DNA of 45,013 bases, taken from sequence record OZ035811.1; one strand, written 5' to 3'. This DNA comes from Dhillonvirus LM40P1. Shown in pieces: positions 5,034 through 41,523 of the stretch. Made by a program: the position numbers and the translations under genes. The notes below the pieces were generated by a model, which had not been told where the DNA came from, made no database searches, and saw only the letters and a list, made by a program, of their open reading frames with translations. The number at the start of each line of letters is the position of its first letter. The stretch's first letter is position 1.

Positions 5034-5795
5034 TTAGCGCGGAATACCGCAGATTTCGTTTAGTGTCTTCACGTCAAGCGCTACTGCCGTTGACTTCTTC
5101 TCTTCCTGCGGGATGAACTGTTTCACTTCAGGCCATGCCTTAATAAGTTTGGTGTCTGTAGTGTACTTATTCAGAGTACCCATAACTGACAATTTAAACT
5201 CATCGTATTTAGCACGTAAATCGCGGCGCGCCTTGTCGTTCTTATCCAGACGTTTGCAAAATTCATGCTCTGCCGGGTAATCTGCACGACCGCGAGGCTT
5301 GTAGATCGGCACTTGCTCACCTTCCGCGTTAATTTCCACCAGCGCCGTAAGTAGCGCAGTTTCAAACCCAGGTACGATTTCGCCAATGTCCGGGGCCATC
5401 GAGTTATTGTAGCGGTCTTCCCAGTAGCCTCGGTGACAGCGGCTGCTGTAGTTATCACCGCTCAATGACAGTGTGCGGATGTTACCACCCATGTTGACTT
5501 CGAACGTTGCATCGTACACAGCACCAATGCCGTGGGGCATGTCCTTGTTATGGCTGAAGGTTGCACGGCTGGCGTACACGCTTATGCTAAACATGCCGTT
5601 ATTTGTGTCTTGATAGCTGCGCATCATTTTCTGCAACCCAACGAAGCTGGTAACACCTTTCGGCATCTGATCCAGAGTGATAGCCAGCGCCAGGTCGCGC
5701 GATTCGGTCATTAACTTTTTGGCCTGCTTCGTGATTTCGTGGCCTGCCAGGATGTTAGCCAGGATTTGCTTTTTAATGTCTTTAGTCAGTCTCAT
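5034..5795 (-). CDS. hypothetical protein (antisense insert in the late block)
   Basis: ATG at 5795 (internal to listed ORF) with GAGGAAA SD; 253 aa; own promoter and terminator; no motif recognised. Confidence 0.6.
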   Translation of the reverse strand: MRLTKDIKKQILANILAGHEITKQAKKLMTESRDLALAITLDQMPKGVTSFVGLQKMMRSYQDTNNGMFSISVYASRATFSHNKDMPHGIGAVYDATFEVNMGGNIRTLSLSGDNYSSRCHRGYWEDRYNNSMAPDIGEIVPGFETALLTALVEINAEGEQVPIYKPRGRADYPAEHEFCKRLDKNDKARRDLRAKYDEFKLSVMGTLNKYTTDTKLIKAWPEVKQFIPQEEKKSTAVALDVKTLNEICGIPR

Positions 5796-5825: not shown

Positions 5826-5854
5826 AATATATTGCAACCAATTAGCCAATGCAA
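5826..5854 (-). promoter_or_regulatory. sigma70-like promoter (TTGCAT-17-TATATT) with ATTGGTTGCA repeats
   Basis: -35/-10 hexamers at 17 bp spacing on minus strand, about 30 bp upstream of the 5795 start; same architecture as four other leftward promoters. Confidence 0.5.
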
Positions 5855-8889: not shown

Positions 8890-9480
8890 GTGGCAGAACA
8901 GTATTCTTTCGCGGCTACGATCGCAACGTGGGTAGAGAAGACGAAAGAGAACAACGATAAGGCGGTGCGGGCGGTGGGTATGCAAATCCTCGGTCGCCTT
9001 ATCGAGATCTCGCCAGTTGGCGACCCGAAGCGCTGGAAGATTAACCGCGCTTTCGCCCTTGCGCGGGAACACGCTAACAGAGTTAACGCCGCACAGCGCA
9101 AGAAGAACGGCGGCAAACTGAAGCGAGGCCAGAAGAAGCACGCAAGCGTACTGGTTAGCTTCACGACGAAGAAAGGGCAGGTGACTTTCCGCCAGCGTGG
9201 CTGGGCAGCTAAGAATTACACCGGCGGGCGCTTCCGGGGAAACTGGCAGGTGTCATTTGATCGCCCGGCTACCGGTACAGTTGACCGCATCGACAAGGCG
9301 GGGGCCGCCACACTTGCCGCAGGGCGTGAGATTCTGGTGCAGTATGATTCGGACACGTACGGGTCGATCTGGTTTACTAACAATGTGCCGTATGCGCAGC
9401 GACTGGAGTACGGCTGGAGTAAACAAGCGCCCGCGGGCATCGTCCGCGTAGTGGCGGCAGAAATTAATTCGAAGGTGTGA
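8890..9480 (+). CDS. tail completion / neck protein candidate
   Basis: GTG start with AAGGGG SD; 196 aa; position before tail terminator-like gene. Confidence 0.4.
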   Translation: MAEQYSFAATIATWVEKTKENNDKAVRAVGMQILGRLIEISPVGDPKRWKINRAFALAREHANRVNAAQRKKNGGKLKRGQKKHASVLVSFTTKKGQVTFRQRGWAAKNYTGGRFRGNWQVSFDRPATGTVDRIDKAGAATLAAGREILVQYDSDTYGSIWFTNNVPYAQRLEYGWSKQAPAGIVRVVAAEINSKV

Positions 9481-9481
9481 T

Positions 9482-9904
9482 ATGAGCAATACTAAAATCC
9501 GGAAGGCGCTGAATAGCGTAGTGGAAGAGTTAGCCGCGGAATTGCAGACGGGTACGCGCATTATCCGCATCAACTGGGAGAATATTGCGGGCGACCACGC
9601 AGACGGCAACGGCATCTACCTAGAGCCGTACCTGCTACCGGCCCCGACCCAGTTTGTTGGCCTACAGCAGAAGGGCCGGATCTACGCGGGCGTGTATCAG
9701 GTTGCCGTAGTGTTCCCCGCGGACACGGGCACGCAGTATGCCAGTGAACTGGCGGACACCATTGCCGAGTCGCCAAAGTGGCAGAACGTGAAAATTGACG
9801 GCATGACGTTCCAGTTACAAGATGCACCGTACACCAGTCCGGTGACTGAAGATATTGACGCGGCGCGCATTGTAATCACGGTTATGTACCACGGTTGCGC
9901 CTGA
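9482..9904 (+). CDS. tail terminator-like protein candidate
   Basis: 140 aa ORF immediately upstream of major tail protein gene. Confidence 0.4.
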   Translation: MSNTKIRKALNSVVEELAAELQTGTRIIRINWENIAGDHADGNGIYLEPYLLPAPTQFVGLQQKGRIYAGVYQVAVVFPADTGTQYASELADTIAESPKWQNVKIDGMTFQLQDAPYTSPVTEDIDAARIVITVMYHGCA

Positions 9905-11435: not shown

Positions 11436-11448
11436 TTCCGGCCTTTTT
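11426..11448 (+). terminator. rho-independent terminator
   Basis: GGCCGG...CCGGCC hairpin followed by TTTTT. Confidence 0.55.
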
Positions 11449-11452
11449 CATA

Positions 11453-11576
11453 GCGGGACGTCCTGCTTGTCCCGTTTTTGTCCCGCTGTCCCGCCCCGCC
11501 AAAAACTGCATACCTATTCAGAAATACTGCATAAAACCAAAACGGGACAAAAACGGGACAAGCAGGACGTCCCGCC
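11453..11576. repeat. inverted repeat pair (about 32 bp arms) built from TTGTCCCG/CGGGACAA iterons and GGGACGTCC
   Basis: 11453-11484 is the reverse complement of 11543-11576. Confidence 0.7.
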
Positions 11577-11599
11577 TCAAAAGTGCATATCTATGCAGT

Positions 11600-11772
11600 T
11601 TTCATGCATAAAACGAACGGGACAAAAACGGGACAAACTGCAAGCGGGACAGAGCGGGACGTCCCGCCGTCCCTGCCAGAGCTGCCGCGGGTTTCAGCCG
11701 ATCGGGACAGGCGGGACAAAGCCCAGTCTTTCAGACTAGACGGGGGTCAATGGCCCCCTCCGTCTGAGACTG
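11600..11772 (+). repeat. non-coding module copy 1: TGCATAAAAC, CGGGACAA iterons, GGGACGTCCCGCC palindrome, GCGGGTTT box, conserved hairpin
   Basis: About 170 bp with roughly 80 percent identity by eye to 39959-40131; iterons at 11 bp spacing. Confidence 0.7.
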
Positions 11773-11839
11773 AATAAGGTTGGTTGCAAAATGACTGATA
11801 CAATACAAACGGCAACTTGCATAAAAAGGGGACTGCATA

Positions 11840-37009: not shown

Positions 37010-37056
37010 GGTGTGTCTCCGTTTAGTTAAAAGTGAATGTCGTTTCGACGAGGTGA

Positions 37057-37086
37057 ATAATAGATTGGTTGCAGGATGGGTGTCAA
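37057..37086 (-). promoter_or_regulatory. strong sigma70-like early promoter (TTGACA, 17-18 bp spacer, TATTAT)
   Basis: Perfect -35 on minus strand; spacer contains TGCAACCAAT; A11 tract immediately upstream. Confidence 0.55.
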
Positions 37087-37096
37087 CAACTAATTT

Positions 37097-37107
37097 AAAA
37101 AAAAAAA
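37097..37107. repeat. A11 homopolymer in divergent promoter region
   Basis: Eleven consecutive A on plus strand. Confidence 0.9.
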
Positions 37108-37202
37108 TCCCCGAAGCAAAACGCAACGGGGATAACCATAAGAGACAATGAGACTGGTTTTATTATTACACGCGCGCGCACCCGTTTCAATATACAAAAC
37201 AG

Positions 37203-37231
37203 TTGACACCGGTTTAATTTGGGTGTAGTTT
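37203..37231 (+). promoter_or_regulatory. sigma70-like promoter (TTGACA-17-TAGTTT)
   Basis: Perfect -35 and 17 bp spacer, about 30 bp upstream of the 37263 gene. Confidence 0.5.
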
Positions 37232-37262
37232 CTTTGGTCATTAACCAACAGGAGACTGAATT

Positions 37263-37556
37263 GTGAATACGACTAAATTGAATGCTTTGTTAGATATGGT
37301 TGAGAATGGTGTTGATGTTGGTGCGGCCCGCGACGCTATTAACGTTGCGTTCAAAGACCTGGCCTACAAACTGGAATTACTGAACGGTACGGCAGCGAGC
37401 AAGCTGCAAAAGCATAACGAAGAAATGGAAGAATACAAAAAGCAGGTTATCAGACTGCGCGAAGAGGGTAAGTCCTGGGCAATGATTGCCGAGTTAACGG
37501 GTATTAATCAGAGCACCGTTCGTTCTTGGGTACGCAATACTAAAACTGCTAAGTAA
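37263..37556 (+). CDS. HTH DNA-binding protein (candidate transcription regulator)
   Basis: GTG start with GGAGAC SD; C-terminal helix-turn-helix-like segment SWAMIAELTGINQSTVRSW. Confidence 0.5.
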   Translation: MNTTKLNALLDMVENGVDVGAARDAINVAFKDLAYKLELLNGTAASKLQKHNEEMEEYKKQVIRLREEGKSWAMIAELTGINQSTVRSWVRNTKTAK

Positions 37557-37568
37557 GGAATTGAGACA

Positions 37569-39833
37569 ATGAGAAATATAGAATTTGCGATCACACCCCC
37601 CGCTAAGAAAGGCGAATCTGCGGTAGCTCATAACCAGTCCATGACTACCGCCGAGTTTTTCGAATTTATCCAGGATGCACCGGTAGTGTCGTCAGTTTGC
37701 ATTAACGGTACTGAAGATAAAAAAGAATATGCGCGACGTAAGCGTAAAGGCGACGGCATTGTGGCTACAACCGCCGATGGCACGCGTAAAAAGACTGGCG
37801 TGGTTAGCCGCTCGATCCTGTTCTTCGACCTGGACCGTGCTGACAACCGCACACTTACCCGCTGCCGCAGGGCTTTCCGCAAGTCCGGCCTGGAATATGT
37901 CTACCACACCACCACCGGCGACCGCCACCCGTTGAAAGACGGCAAGCGCTGTGTGCGTTTCCTGGTGCTGACAAACAAGCCAGTTCCGGCGGAAGACCTG
38001 GGCCGCGCGCAGGCTGCACTGCTTGAGCAACTGGGTCTTACCGACGCGGGCTTTGATGACTGCTCGAAAGACACAAACCGCCTTATGTACCTGCCCCACC
38101 AGCAGGCTAAGGTCGAGTGCCATGAAGGTAAACGCGCTAACGTGCGTCGTCTGCTTCGCCTGGCTGACAAGATGGGTATTGAGCAGGAAACGTTTCGCCG
38201 TGAACTGGTGCAGGGCGACGACGAGCAGATGAACGGCATCCTCGACTGGTGTTTCCAGGCTGGTTTTGAGCCGTTACCATCCGGGCGCGGTTATGAAGTA
38301 CCGTGCCCAAACGAACATCTGCACTCTGGTGAAGGGTCTACCGCTATCATGCTTAAGGATGGCGAGATTCGTTTCAAATGTATGCACACCGGCAACGGAT
38401 GCTGTTCTGAACTGAACAAACACCAACACCTGGCGCTGCGAATGATTGGTATCCCGGATATTTATAACGTGGAGCCACACAACATGTCACGCAAACAGAT
38501 CTCGGCAATCCTGCCGGGTCTGGACGACGAAGAAGTGGACGCGCAGTACGAGCACATGGTTGACCTGGTGGGTGAAGGTGAGGATTATGCGTCCTGTACT
38601 GACGCAGACCTGGAAGACGAACCGACGGCGTTGTTCTCGAAGCACGACCCGATCATCGAAGGTCTGATTAACTTCAAATCGACCTGGTACGCAGCGGGTG
38701 AGTCGAACATTGGTAAGTCCTTCTTTGTCATGGGTCAGATGGCTGCCGTTGCCGCTGGCATCCCGTTCGGCGGCGCGAAGGTCGTCCAGTCCCATTGCTT
38801 CTACTTCGATGCGGAAGGTGGCGAGGCGTCACTGCAACGTAAAGAAGCGTTGCAGATTAAATATGAGCACGACCTGGACAAGCTGCACATTATCGACCTT
38901 CAGGCACGCGGCTGGGATATTACGAGCAAGTCCGGCCTGCGTGAAGTCATCAGCTTTATCAACCGCACCGCGGATGGTGAGCCGGTCGGCCTGGTGGCGT
39001 TCGACTCCCTTAACCAGACCGTAGCGCTGCGTTCGGCTGACGCCAAACCGTTCGATGAGAACAACGCCAGCGATATGGGTGAGATTGTCAAGGCGCTGAA
39101 AGCCATTGCGGAAAACACAGGCGGCAGTGCGGGCGTCATCCACCACCCGGCGAAGGGTGCAAACGGCAGCAGATCCCCGCGTGGGTCCGGTGCGCTACAT
39201 GGCGCGGTGGATTCTGCATTCTTCCTGGAACAGCCAGACGAGAATCAGCCAGGCCAGCTTAACCTCTATCATGAGAAAGCCCGTAACGGCGTGAAACAGG
39301 GTCCGCGCGGCTTCGTGCTACTGAAGTGCAAAGTGTCCATTAACGAGCGCAAGTCCGACACGTTCGAAGCGCACCAGTCCACTAACCCTGGTCCAGACTT
39401 CGGCGATGTAGTTGCCGGTTGGGACGTCAAGCCAATCCAGGCCACCCCGCGTGATGAGACTCTGTACCTTGTACCGGTAGCTCTGGCCCCGTTCGCTATC
39501 GAACAGGCGAAGGCCGCGGGCAAGCAGGCTGTTAAGGAAGAAAACCCCGCCGGTCCGCGCAATGAAAAAGAGAAAGTGCTTTACGCAGCGCTCGAAGCGT
39601 TGATGGAAGAGAATCCGGGACACCATGGCTTCAGCAAATCGGCAATCGTCCGCAAAGCCGGACTGGCGAAAGGTGGCACATCGACGAAGCCAATAGACGA
39701 TATGCGTGAGCGCGGAATCATCGGCTTTTACAAAGACCCGGACACCGGGGCCATTTACGGGTCGTCGAATCTGGTTATCAATTCACAAATACCTATGCAA
39801 TTGACGGCGACGGATGATGATTTGAAAGATTAA
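37569..39833 (+). CDS. primase-helicase (N-terminal primase-like domain, zinc motif, RecA-type ATPase)
   Basis: Walker A GESNIGKS, Walker B-like VGLVAFDSL, Cys/His cluster CPNEHLH...CMHTGNGC. Confidence 0.65.
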   Translation: MRNIEFAITPPAKKGESAVAHNQSMTTAEFFEFIQDAPVVSSVCINGTEDKKEYARRKRKGDGIVATTADGTRKKTGVVSRSILFFDLDRADNRTLTRCRRAFRKSGLEYVYHTTTGDRHPLKDGKRCVRFLVLTNKPVPAEDLGRAQAALLEQLGLTDAGFDDCSKDTNRLMYLPHQQAKVECHEGKRANVRRLLRLADKMGIEQETFRRELVQGDDEQMNGILDWCFQAGFEPLPSGRGYEVPCPNEHLHSGEGSTAIMLKDGEIRFKCMHTGNGCCSELNKHQHLALRMIGIPDIYNVEPHNMSRKQISAILPGLDDEEVDAQYEHMVDLVGEGEDYASCTDADLEDEPTALFSKHDPIIEGLINFKSTWYAAGESNIGKSFFVMGQMAAVAAGIPFGGAKVVQSHCFYFDAEGGEASLQRKEALQIKYEHDLDKLHIIDLQARGWDITSKSGLREVISFINRTADGEPVGLVAFDSLNQTVALRSADAKPFDENNASDMGEIVKALKAIAENTGGSAGVIHHPAKGANGSRSPRGSGALHGAVDSAFFLEQPDENQPGQLNLYHEKARNGVKQGPRGFVLLKCKVSINERKSDTFEAHQSTNPGPDFGDVVAGWDVKPIQATPRDETLYLVPVALAPFAIEQAKAAGKQAVKEENPAGPRNEKEKVLYAALEALMEENPGHHGFSKSAIVRKAGLAKGGTSTKPIDDMRERGIIGFYKDPDTGAIYGSSNLVINSQIPMQLTATDDDLKD

Positions 39834-39842
39834 ATTTTGCGC

Positions 39843-39921
39843 GCATTGGTTGCCAATATGGTTAATTTGTGCGCGCATTGGTTGCCAGATTGGGTATTAA
39901 ATCTATATCGCATTGGTTGCC
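39843..39921 (+). repeat. three direct repeats of GCATTGGTTGCC at 32-35 bp spacing
   Basis: Copies at 39843-39854, 39875-39886, 39910-39921, each followed by an A/T-rich hexamer. Confidence 0.75.
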
Positions 39922-39958
39922 GTGTAGTGCTAAATAAGTGAATAGTTATGCAAAATAA

Positions 39959-40131
39959 GTGCATAAAACAAACGGGACAAAAACGGGACAAACGACAAAC
40001 GGGACAAAACGGGACGTCCCGCCGTCCCCCTCAGGAGTGGCGCGGGTTTGAGGCAAACGGGACAAGCGGGACAGACCACAGTCTTTCAGACTAGACGGGG
40101 GGTATTGTCCCCCCTCCGTCTGAGACTGCAT
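39959..40131 (+). repeat. non-coding module copy 2: TGCATAAAAC, CGGGACAA iterons, GGGACGTCCCGCC palindrome, GCGGGTTT box, conserved hairpin
   Basis: Matches 11600-11772 in element order; hairpin stem conserved while loop differs (tattgt versus tcaatgg). Confidence 0.7.
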
Positions 40132-40288
40132 AAAATCTCTGGTTGCATAATCAACGGCAGCATAGTGAAAAATGCGGCGGGGGTAGATCTCGGCAACCAA
40201 TGCGGGTTGAAGAGTGGAGAGTGAAAAATGCAGTTTGGTAATGACAACTGATAGCGATCAGCATTTTCATGCGCGTGATTAATATTGG

Positions 40289-40317
40289 TTGCATTCGTCC
40301 TGCCAGGGTGTTAGATT
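40289..40317 (+). promoter_or_regulatory. sigma70-like promoter (TTGCAT-17-TAGATT) flanked by ATTGGTTGCA motifs
   Basis: ATTGGTTGCATtcgtcctgccagggtgTTAGATTGGTTGCAC about 30 bp upstream of the 40346 gene. Confidence 0.5.
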
Positions 40318-40345
40318 GGTTGCACACCAACATGAGGACTGAACG

Positions 40346-40651
40346 ATGAGAGCATTAATCTGGAATTACACAATGGCTGTGGCGAAGCTGTACGAAGCGA
40401 AGCACACAAACGGCAACGCAGACGACGCGCGCCAGGCTGTCATCCTGGCCCAGCAGGGAATCATGAACGCGTTCGACAATATGTTTGCCAGCCTGGACGA
40501 ACTGGAACCGCTGCGCGTGGCAATCTGCGAATATGCGATGGCATTTGCCCGTGAACGCCTGGCATACCGGTTTGGTATCGGGAAAACGGCAGTGGCTAAC
40601 ATCGCCCGCATTCAGGCCCAGCGTGAGCTGCACGCCATACTCGCGAAATAA
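40346..40651 (+). CDS. hypothetical protein
   Basis: ATG with GAGGA SD; 101 aa. Confidence 0.5.
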   Translation: MRALIWNYTMAVAKLYEAKHTNGNADDARQAVILAQQGIMNAFDNMFASLDELEPLRVAICEYAMAFARERLAYRFGIGKTAVANIARIQAQRELHAILAK

Positions 40652-40660
40652 GGGGCCAAA

Positions 40661-40930
40661 ATGACACGCAGACGCGCTCAATGGCTTTCATGGCACATTC
40701 CCCTACATAGCATCCGTTTATGGGCGCAGAACGCGATTGAGGGCGATTCTGTGTTCTGGAGCTATCGGGATGACGTCAAGCCGCTGACGCAGACCAGAAA
40801 GCTGCACCAGTTCATGAACGAACACGGACTGCCGGTGAAAACATCATTGCAACCAATCGGCATCCGTATTACATTACGCCGTAAGCCAATCGTTGAGCAG
40901 GTTGGCAAACACAGGAGACTGACAAAATGA
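40661..40930 (+). CDS. hypothetical protein
   Basis: ATG with AAGGGG SD; 89 aa. Confidence 0.45.
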   Translation: MTRRRAQWLSWHIPLHSIRLWAQNAIEGDSVFWSYRDDVKPLTQTRKLHQFMNEHGLPVKTSLQPIGIRITLRRKPIVEQVGKHRRLTK

Positions 40931-41523
40931 AATTGATCTTCCGCCATAAACATAATGGGCGATTCCTTACCCCAATCCAGGTGCTGCCGAACTATGTGCG
41001 CCTGCACCACGAAGCCAGCGACCGCGTATTCTGGTTTAAGAAAGCCACTCTGCCGAAATATTTGCAGGTTGTGCATCATGACGTCCGCGTCGGCGATGTG
41101 CTGCGGGATATTCGGGACGGTGCGCTGTTCGTAGTACAGCGTGTGACTACCTTCGGCGTTGTACTGCAATGCGGAGCGATCCGACGCCGTCTATTTTCTG
41201 TCGGCCTGGTGAACTACACTCGCGTGGGCCGGAACTATGTGCCTAAGCTGTTCAAGCGCTACGACGCCAACCAGGTGCAAGCGAAGATGGGTCGCGCCGT
41301 ACACAAAATCGTCAATCGCTTTGATGCCGTGACGAACGCACAGCGCCATGCGCAGGAATACGGTGTGGGATTCATCCGGGTAGAACGAGACGGCAGTATG
41401 ACGTCCATCGACCCGCGCTCGACCCAACTGAAGATAGTCGAAGTGAGCAAATGTTGCCGGGCAGAAGTTGTGCGCGACCCCGGCGGGCAAGCCTTCTGTC
41501 GCGAGTGTGCGGGTGTGATATGA
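40927..41523 (+). CDS. hypothetical protein with C-terminal Cys pairs
   Basis: ATGA overlap with upstream gene; C-terminus CCRAEV...CRECAG. Confidence 0.45.
   Translation: MKLIFRHKHNGRFLTPIQVLPNYVRLHHEASDRVFWFKKATLPKYLQVVHHDVRVGDVLRDIRDGALFVVQRVTTFGVVLQCGAIRRRLFSVGLVNYTRVGRNYVPKLFKRYDANQVQAKMGRAVHKIVNRFDAVTNAQRHAQEYGVGFIRVERDGSMTSIDPRSTQLKIVEVSKCCRAEVVRDPGGQAFCRECAGVI

Follow-up and report, generated by a model that had tools for sequence, protein, structure and literature searches.

The 45,013-bp stretch of DNA analyzed here (hereafter the window) corresponds to a near-complete Dhillonvirus genome, that of an E. coli siphovirus of the HK578/SO-1 group, and its positions 39000-41000 are 97.6% identical to phage Ioannina. 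The repeats considered in this work lie in a 512-bp non-coding region (39834-40345) between a helicase-primase gene on the left and a rightward block on the right, the first gene of which occupies 40346-40651, and the first repeat copy begins 10 bp past the helicase-primase stop codon (Table 1). The helicase-primase has an RSF1010 RepA-like AAA_25 helicase core, with a weak PDB match to 1g8y, and an N-terminal domain carrying DxD/GDRH together with a Cys/His cluster. Its C-terminal end differs from genus to genus; a homologue search with this part of the protein returned one fragment, and a single-sequence structure model of it had a pLDDT of 48.6. The GenBank record of phage SO-1 (NC_013600) annotates the same locus as a repeat_region, "region B" (40178-40657), and contains a second annotated repeat region, region A, the two resembling each other; for region B, repeats of the direct, inverted and palindromic kinds are given. 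The sites defined in Table 1 as A, B and C occur in region B of SO-1 (L083 in our comparison) at spacing identical to that in the window, whereas the accessible part of the region B note names neither the TTGGTTGCC sites nor their link to a promoter motif nor their variation in copy number.

Table 1. Features of the repeat locus, of its sister module and of the genes and promoter-like site associated with them (window coordinates).
Feature	Position	Strand	Remarks
Region A, second iteron/hairpin/TGGTTGCA module	11436..11839	+	between tail chaperone and tape-measure genes
Small coiled-coil protein with C-terminal HTH (HTH_23 / sigma-70 region 4-like)	37263..37556	+	first gene of the helicase operon
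Helicase-primase gene	37569..39833	+	754 aa; annotated in relatives as replicative helicase-primase
Site A1, distal dispensable copy	39843..39854	+	exact GCATTGGTTGCC, preceded by palindrome TGCGCGCA
Site A2, usual single distal copy of the genus	39875..39886	+	exact; TGCGCGCA-TTGGTTGC-C
Site B, universal proximal copy	39906..39929	+	tcgcaTTGGTTGCCgtgtagtg; 12-mer at 39910-39921
AT-rich stretch, candidate DNA-unwinding region	39925..39968	.	32-40% G+C; holds GTGAATAGTTATGCA and TGCATAAAAC
Iteron module copy 2	39969..40080	+	(A/C)AAACGGGAC (ACGGGACAAA-type) direct repeats, 10-16 bp spacing
Palindrome GGGACGTCCC	40010-40019		within iteron module copy 2
Nested G+C-rich inverted repeats	40078..40126	.	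cagtct..agact; gacgggggg-tattgt-cccccctccgtc; gagact; without T-run
Degenerate motif copy and octamer ACGGCAGC	40140..40161	+	TGGTTGCATAATCAACGGCAGC; genus-conserved; equivalent in region A
Site C, inverted GCATTGGTTGCC	40192..40203	-	exact; 280-281 bp to the right of site B
Promoter-like site of the 40346 operon	40285..40323	+	distal TTGGTTGC; -35 TTGCAT 40289-40294, 17-bp spacer, -10 TAGATT 40312-40317

Three exact copies of GCATTGGTTGCC follow one another on the + strand, with start-to-start distances of 32 and 35 bp. A reading made from the sequence alone (the sequence-only reading) had described a triple direct repeat at about 33-bp spacing, of which the three copies stand and the uniform spacing does not. 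That reading had overlooked a fourth exact copy, inverted, at site C, which forms inverted repeats of 13-18 nt with sites A1, A2 and B. The TTGGTTGCC sites of the genome number four, all inside 361 bp, and, given that only about 0.005 exact 12-mers are expected in 2 x 45 kb (90,026/4^12), these repeats are not due to chance. The repeated unit is longer than 12 nt (TTAAATTTTGCGCGCATTGGTTGCCAATATGG), identity over 32 nt being 84% for copy 2 and 66% for copy 3, and copies 1 and 2 share a 32-nt unit in which the helicase stop codon is included. None of the spacings found in the window or in its relatives (32, 35 and 54 bp) corresponds to an integral number of helical turns. The hexamers following the copies (AA-TATGGT after A1, AG-ATTGGG after A2 and G-TGTAGT after B) are degenerate, as had been noted earlier.

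To the right of site B lies the stretch with the lowest G+C content of the region. It holds three DnaA-box-like 9-mers with one mismatch each, and region B as a whole has five DnaA-like matches vs. 0.7 in shuffled sequences. The part of the stretch comprising GTGAATAGTTATGCA and TGCATAAAAC is conserved both in Dhillonvirus and in Guernseyvirinae. The GGGAC iteron module begins directly beyond it, in agreement with the earlier statement that the array adjoins the second copy of such a module, the first being located at about 11440-11720, and is followed by G+C-rich inverted repeats that are common to region A and conserved in the genus. Regions A and B share a core of about 230 bp at 85-90% identity, and the iteron module copy 2 matches about 11540-11720 at roughly that level. 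Region A contains no TTGGTTGCC sites, which are therefore unnecessary for the role of the module there. It is odd to find an origin-like module such as region A inside the tail gene block, and the arrangement brings to mind ori and crr of satellite phage P4. Features of an iteron origin are thus present at region B, namely clustered motif repeats next to an AT-rich stretch and a conserved place beside the helicase-primase gene. The GC skew of the window reflects only the direction of its genes and is lowest near 36-37 kb; region B does not stand out in it. A search of Rfam over 39500-40700 gave no match up to E = 1, and our literature search returned nothing on Dhillonvirus promoters, origin or motif, nor any origin binding or replication data. 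Two copies of AGTGAAAAATGC were also seen at 40164-40175 and 40220-40231, 28 bp on either side of site C; both correspond to a DnaA-box-like TTTTTCACT on the - strand, and the right-hand copy alone is conserved in the genus.

We compared 17 Dhillonvirus genomes, consisting of the window, Ioannina, SO-1 and 14 IMG/VR contigs. The sequence-only reading had made its interpretation depend on the repeats recurring in related phages, and they do recur: site B (tcg[c/t]aTTGGTTGCCgtgtagt) was found in 17 of 17 genomes, with about 20 bp at 100% column identity, and site C in all 17 as well, at a constant 280-281 bp to its right, the two bracketing the AT-rich stretch, the GGGAC iterons and the hairpin. 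In the multiple alignment, the motif columns of these two sites form islands of 100% identity amid flanks conserved at 40-80%, those of site C being conserved at 40-70%. Equally invariant in the 17 genomes is a promoter pair located 91 bp beyond site C, the two motif copies of which are 31 bp apart. The distal A sites (tgcgcgcaTTGGTTGCC) vary from zero to two per genome, the last one always lying 35 bp from site B; A2 is present at this position in 16 of the 17 genomes, and A1 is absent from most Dhillonviruses. Across the genus the + strand copies total between one and three, with most genomes having two. L002, with a helicase C-terminus that is 99% identical, has two copies and lacks A1, and L004/EP23 has one. 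Since a single copy suffices in L004/EP23 and two are the usual state, two of the three copies are dispensable in nature. A broader search matched the array region in 156 phage records, all Dhillonvirus-like, of which about 29 span all three copies and most span two. When 5,426 complete E. coli genomes and a plasmid collection were searched, region B matched none of them, and neither did the double-motif promoter in complete E. coli genomes or plasmids.

Among the 17 genomes the core departs from its usual sequence in one form only, TTGGTCGC, a word also seen at a promoter site. The hexamers after the A sites vary by clade (TATGGT/ATTGGG in the window, TTTTGA/TTTTGG elsewhere), and in the divergent genome L016 the sites are in reversed orientation. 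In genomes with two A sites, A1 and A2 are 54 bp apart with an 18-bp palindrome in between; the window and Ioannina have a distance of 32 bp instead, equal to the 54-bp unit minus 22 bp. The palindrome, ATATGGGAATTCCCATAT, is perfect in L003, L005, L006, L013 and L014; in the lineage of the window its centre was lost through a 22-bp deletion, with half of it kept at 39855-39862, and it may represent another binding site.

The core of the motif, TTGGTTGC, is present in 22 copies in the window vs. about 2 expected, the maximum of 100 shuffles being not above 7, and 17 of the 22 copies are located in intergenic DNA, which makes up about 8% of the genome. The majority of the copies are part of promoter-like sites, found at 5834, 21972, 26356, 27817 and 40285. 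In their usual build, the distal copy provides the -35 (TTGCAA or TTGCAT), 17 bp separate it from a TATATT-type -10, and a second copy lies in the spacer or over the -10, as at the site ahead of the 40346 operon, where the proximal copy (40316-40323) overlaps the -10 and the start region. The offset between the promoter copies is 17 bp in Dhillonvirus, 13 bp in L016 and 12 bp in eiAU, with a constant -35/-10 distance of 17. The motif is also found reversed in the spacers of 37086 (-), a near-consensus leftward early promoter (TTGACA-18-TATTAT), and of 43481 (+). The presence of the motif in spacers, at varied offsets and in both orientations, suggests that it is operator-like rather than a polymerase contact. 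Copies fall into two classes according to their flanks, GCA...CC on the origin side and A/T...CA at promoters.

We then considered whether the repeats at region B could themselves be read as promoters. Their -35-like hexamers match TTGACA in 5 of 6 positions at A1 and A2 (TTGCCA) and in 4 of 6 at site B (TTGCCG). A sigma-70 scan of 39600-40500 yielded no promoter-like site, and a looser scan, for a -10 with A2 and T6 at 16-18 bp, yielded none for A1 or A2; site B gives a marginal promoter reading (TTGCCG-18-AATAGT, 8/12). The sites are flipped in L016, of mixed orientation in eiAU and antisense within a gene in Tsm2, which fits binding sites and not rightward promoters. Together with the lack of a -10 at the A sites and the invariant islands, this variation in orientation supports the earlier proposal that the repeats would be a protein-binding array rather than three promoters.

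The arrangement extends beyond Dhillonvirus, with a common order of a small DNA-binding gene, the helicase-primase gene, a long non-coding region, TTGG(T/C)TG, GTGAATAGTTATGCA, G-rich iterons and a hairpin. The Guernseyvirinae SP031, VSiA and phiEap-2 have the same element order, with TTGGCTG in place of the motif and with GGGGAGA and CGGACAA as iterons. In eiAU (Eiauvirus), seven GTTGGTTGC sites of mixed orientation lie within 300 bp across the helicase-primase stop, five more motif sites are found at the equivalent of region A, and the iterons are ATCGCCCCG. Serratia phage Tsm2 (L085) has four antisense core copies in the last 200 bp of its helicase-primase coding sequence, in two reading frames, and the repeats that follow the gene are TTCCGCACA. 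These four copies appear as GCAACCAA words at 9373-9494, in the part encoding the C-terminal end of the protein, in what appears to be a regulatory or origin signal written into coding sequence. Enrichment of the core was found in the window (22 copies), SO-1 (21), eiAU (23) and Tsm2 (12) vs. about 1.2 expected, and was absent from SP031, phiEap-2, ST20 and VSiA. Covariation of the motif with the DNA-binding domain of an initiator, as expected of iterons, was not seen, TTGGTTGC being constant across Dhillonvirus, eiAU and Tsm2. The repeats that do covary are the G-rich ones (GGGAC, CGCCCCG, TTCCGCACA, GGGGAGA and CGGACAA), and the comparison between genera thus indicates that these change along with the C-terminal end of the helicase-primase, while the core is kept in three genera. 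Among the motif-sharing genera, the primase part of the protein is conserved.

As candidate binders, the sequence-only reading had proposed the product of 37263-37556 and zinc-ribbon proteins. The former is plausible within the genus. Of 154 records of this HTH protein, 150 show at least 93% identity over the last 61 aa, as would be expected if it were a regulator with about twenty sites to recognize, and members of the family occur in Dhillonvirus alone; the N-terminal 30 residues in the window are unlike those of most relatives, the remainder being nearly invariant. HK578 carries an allele that is 48% identical, with the motif unchanged. However, we detected no homologue in SP031, nor in eiAU or Tsm2, which bear the motif, and the HTH protein cannot explain its presence there; eiAU, Tsm2 and SP031 have unrelated XRE-type proteins at the position of the HTH gene. 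Within Dhillonvirus, this strongly conserved HTH protein is the leading candidate binder. In relatives it is variously labeled as a transposase, a resolvase or a Gam-like nuclease inhibitor, and family searches support the C-terminal HTH only. No zinc-ribbon DNA-binding protein was found except for the Cys/His cluster inside the helicase-primase, and no other transcription factor was recognizable among the phage genes scanned. Profiling across 7 genomes showed that only a Dam-family methyltransferase tracks motif enrichment; we rejected it as a binder, as its co-occurrence is probably a matter of shared ancestry. CytR half-sites (GTTGCATT) and GntR-type TTGGT..ACCAA operators may resemble the motif, and neither explains the TTGGTTGCC class. 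Overall, the candidates are a host protein, the helicase-primase by way of its conserved part and, inside the genus, the HTH protein.

Considering the conservation, geometry and context of the array, we favor a reading, to which we give about an even chance, in which the GCATTGGTTGCC copies are putative protein-binding sites with core TTGGTTGC that make up the left flank of a probable replication origin and are paired with the inverted site on its right. The fixed architecture, the islands of full identity, the origin-like position, the clustering across genera, the overlap with promoters and the lack of a -10 at the A sites all point in this direction. Against it stand the GC skew, the natural dispensability of two of the three copies, the non-integral helical spacings, the lack of TTGGTTGCC sites in region A, the marginal promoter reading of site B and, as regards the HTH protein, its absence from eiAU and Tsm2 and the divergent allele of HK578. 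One factor, which would also read the core at the -35 or in the spacer of most promoters, may bind the left cluster and the inverted right site cooperatively, and once bound would organize or loop the origin core. The helicase-primase would be tethered to the genus-specific G-rich iterons by its variable C-terminal domain, a possible helicase-loading role for region B, and would open the AT-rich stretch. Sites B and C would be the only fixed parts, whereas the two distal copies would raise occupancy and would be gained and lost by tandem duplication and deletion. A more far-reaching proposal, that TTGGTTGC is the site of one conserved factor (perhaps the N-terminal part of the helicase-primase or a host protein) acting as -35 or spacer operator at most promoters and as origin flank in at least three genera (Dhillonvirus, Eiauvirus and Tsm2-like phages), seems to us rather doubtful; if it were true, transcription and the firing of the origin would be coupled through the occupancy of one 8-bp word.

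Phage origins and operators are well known to carry arrays of binding sites, and in this respect the array is ordinary in kind. It is less ordinary that, in three genera, one word is found both at the flanks of the origin and at most promoters. Iteron origins located beside or inside an initiator gene include the lambda ori, within gene O, and the ori and crr of satellite P4, which encodes the alpha primase-helicase. Region B resembles these in having direct repeats by an AT-rich stretch near a replication-protein gene, and regions A and B resemble the P4 ori/crr pair in being two distant cis modules with common iterons. In contrast to lambda and P4, the duplicated iteron here is GGGAC, and the TTGGTTGC motif is a second kind of site that flanks region B only and is used at promoters; also unlike P4, the helicase is RepA-like (AAA_25) and not of the alpha type. 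A similar layout, though only by analogy, has been described for the archaeal plasmid pRN1, the proteins and sequences of which are unrelated to those studied here: in its orf56/orf904 operon, a small DNA-binding gene precedes that of a primase-helicase, and an essential cis sequence is reported downstream (PMC4234260). Dhillonviruses, such as HK578, SO-1 and several BASEL phages, are common test phages for defence systems, including putative origin-sensing systems. In a preprint on OLD, replication sensing was linked to the helicase-primase of HK578 and the promoter of its gene, and the OLD-escape mutations of HK578 are in the helicase-primase and its promoter, outside region B. The flanking TTGGTTGCC sites, AT-rich stretch, GGGAC iterons and hairpin provide a conserved map of the probable origin, and in phage engineering the short non-coding sequences past the helicase-primase gene are best left undisturbed.

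Other explanations of the array may be proposed. The copies could be weak promoters, or docking sites for RNA polymerase, from which transcription into the AT-rich stretch would activate the origin or provide primer RNA. Transcription-activated or transcription-primed origins include the lambda ori and the primary origin of T7, in which tandem promoters are followed by an AT-rich region, and the tandem promoter-type motifs directly upstream of the AT-rich stretch are similar to the latter. At other loci, good promoter-like sites (TTGCAA/T, 17 bp, TATATT) take their -35 from the motif, the A1 and A2 hexamers are one mismatch from the consensus, and the 8/12 match of site B keeps its spacing genus-wide. 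However, the scans described above gave no -10 for the A sites, the hexamers that follow differ by clade, and orientation is unconserved, so that the likeness to T7 does not extend to usable promoters; we found no phage-encoded RNA polymerase among the genes examined. In Guernseyvirinae, moreover, TTGGCTG abuts GAATAGT and thus cannot be its -35. We therefore regard weak promoters as an unlikely explanation. The array could instead be purely transcriptional in function, either as an operator cluster titrating a TTGGTTGC-binding regulator or as a roadblock to read-through from the helicase operon into the origin and the late genes. The core is indeed shared with promoter-overlapping sites, including the spacer of 37086, the + strand shows no intrinsic terminator-like site from the helicase stop up to the repeats, and the copy number varies as expected of a dosage element. 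What speaks against such a function is the fixed 280-bp bracket with an inverted partner, which in combination with the class-specific flanks suggests a structural role at region B, as well as the same clustering at both iteron modules of eiAU; we think it improbable that transcription alone accounts for the array.

We consider it highly unlikely that the primase part of the helicase-primase reads the sites as opposite-strand signals for priming or helicase loading, in the manner of ssiA and ssiB at the RSF1010 oriV. That origin, which functions with RepA, RepB' and RepC, is composed of iterons, of segments that are G+C-rich or AT-rich and of two signals, one on each strand, the ssi sites being hairpins of about 40 nt. 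Region B resembles it in having origin-type segments and opposite-strand sites flanking the origin core, next to a gene for a RepA-like helicase, and the primase part is conserved among the genera that share the motif. Site B also overlaps ACGGCAAC on the - strand, a second over-represented octamer that occurs about once per 900 bp, is sense-biased and is found in all seven related genomes with this helicase-primase. However, the sites here are 12 bp long and form no hairpin, folding energies relative to shuffles being unremarkable on the + strand (z -1.2) and somewhat lower on the - strand (z -2.4), where the pairing occurs only via the TGCGCGCA palindromes. A priming signal would, in addition, be unexpected at promoter -35s, and SP031, VSiA, phiEap-2 and ST20 have the same enzyme without enrichment of the motif. 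A single site might also be the functional unit, with the triple state reflecting a recent neutral tandem duplication, in keeping with the one and two copies of L004/EP23 and L002, the minority of records (about 29/156) that cover three, and the 32-nt unit, stop codon included, shared by copies 1 and 2. On the other hand, the 8-bp core is intact in every extra copy, with TTGGTCGC as the sole variant, and genomes with three copies belong to two distinct clades, in which the unit measures 54 and 32 bp, so that the triple state must be old or recurrent; we find a recent neutral origin quite unlikely. We also considered RNA pairing between sites B and C, and rejected it on the basis of the one natural variant, gca to gta in B, for which there is no compensating change in C.

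The second over-represented octamer, ACGGCA[AG]C, has 50 copies in the window (32 on the + strand and 18 on the - strand) vs. about 1.5 expected per 8-mer, examples being 39916-39923 (-), 40154-40161 (+) and 40410-40417 (+), and it is enriched equally in SO-1, eiAU, Tsm2, SP031, phiEap-2, ST20 and VSiA. In SO-1, 39 of the 50 genic copies are on the sense strand and are spread over all three frames, which makes it a signal at the level of DNA or RNA; it may be a priming or Chi-like signal.

A scan of IMG/VR for pairs of TTGGTTGCC was swamped by tandem repeats in coding DNA. When pairs of TTGGTTGCA were sought, two non-coding TTGGTTGC arrays directly after primase-helicase genes were obtained: one following a VapE-like ORF in L259 (6313-6640), in which 10 sites are spaced 10 bp apart, and one following a DUF3987 ORF in L248 (9039-9266), in which an AT-rich stretch is surrounded by 8 sites of both orientations. 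We rejected these as relatives of the array studied here, their kin being Bacteroides, Clostridium and gut phages, with hosts in other phyla, and their C-termini non-homologous to this helicase-primase; that the word is shared is taken to be coincidental, and the similar layout to be an analogy.

Two further loci drew our attention. Among the rightward head genes there is a leftward one (5034-5774, - strand) that matches Nmad5 (nucleotide modification associated domain 5) and has a triple-motif promoter-like site ahead of it; the SO-1 record labels the gene at this place differently. Upstream of the helicase operon, 37010-37262 constitutes a divergent control region in which two sigma-70-like promoters, 37190 and 37086, face leftward. 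Between them, on the - strand (37097-37140), lies a hairpin (tccccg-N13-cgggga) followed by eleven T, which may be a short RNA, or the terminator of a leader, upstream of the early leftward operon.
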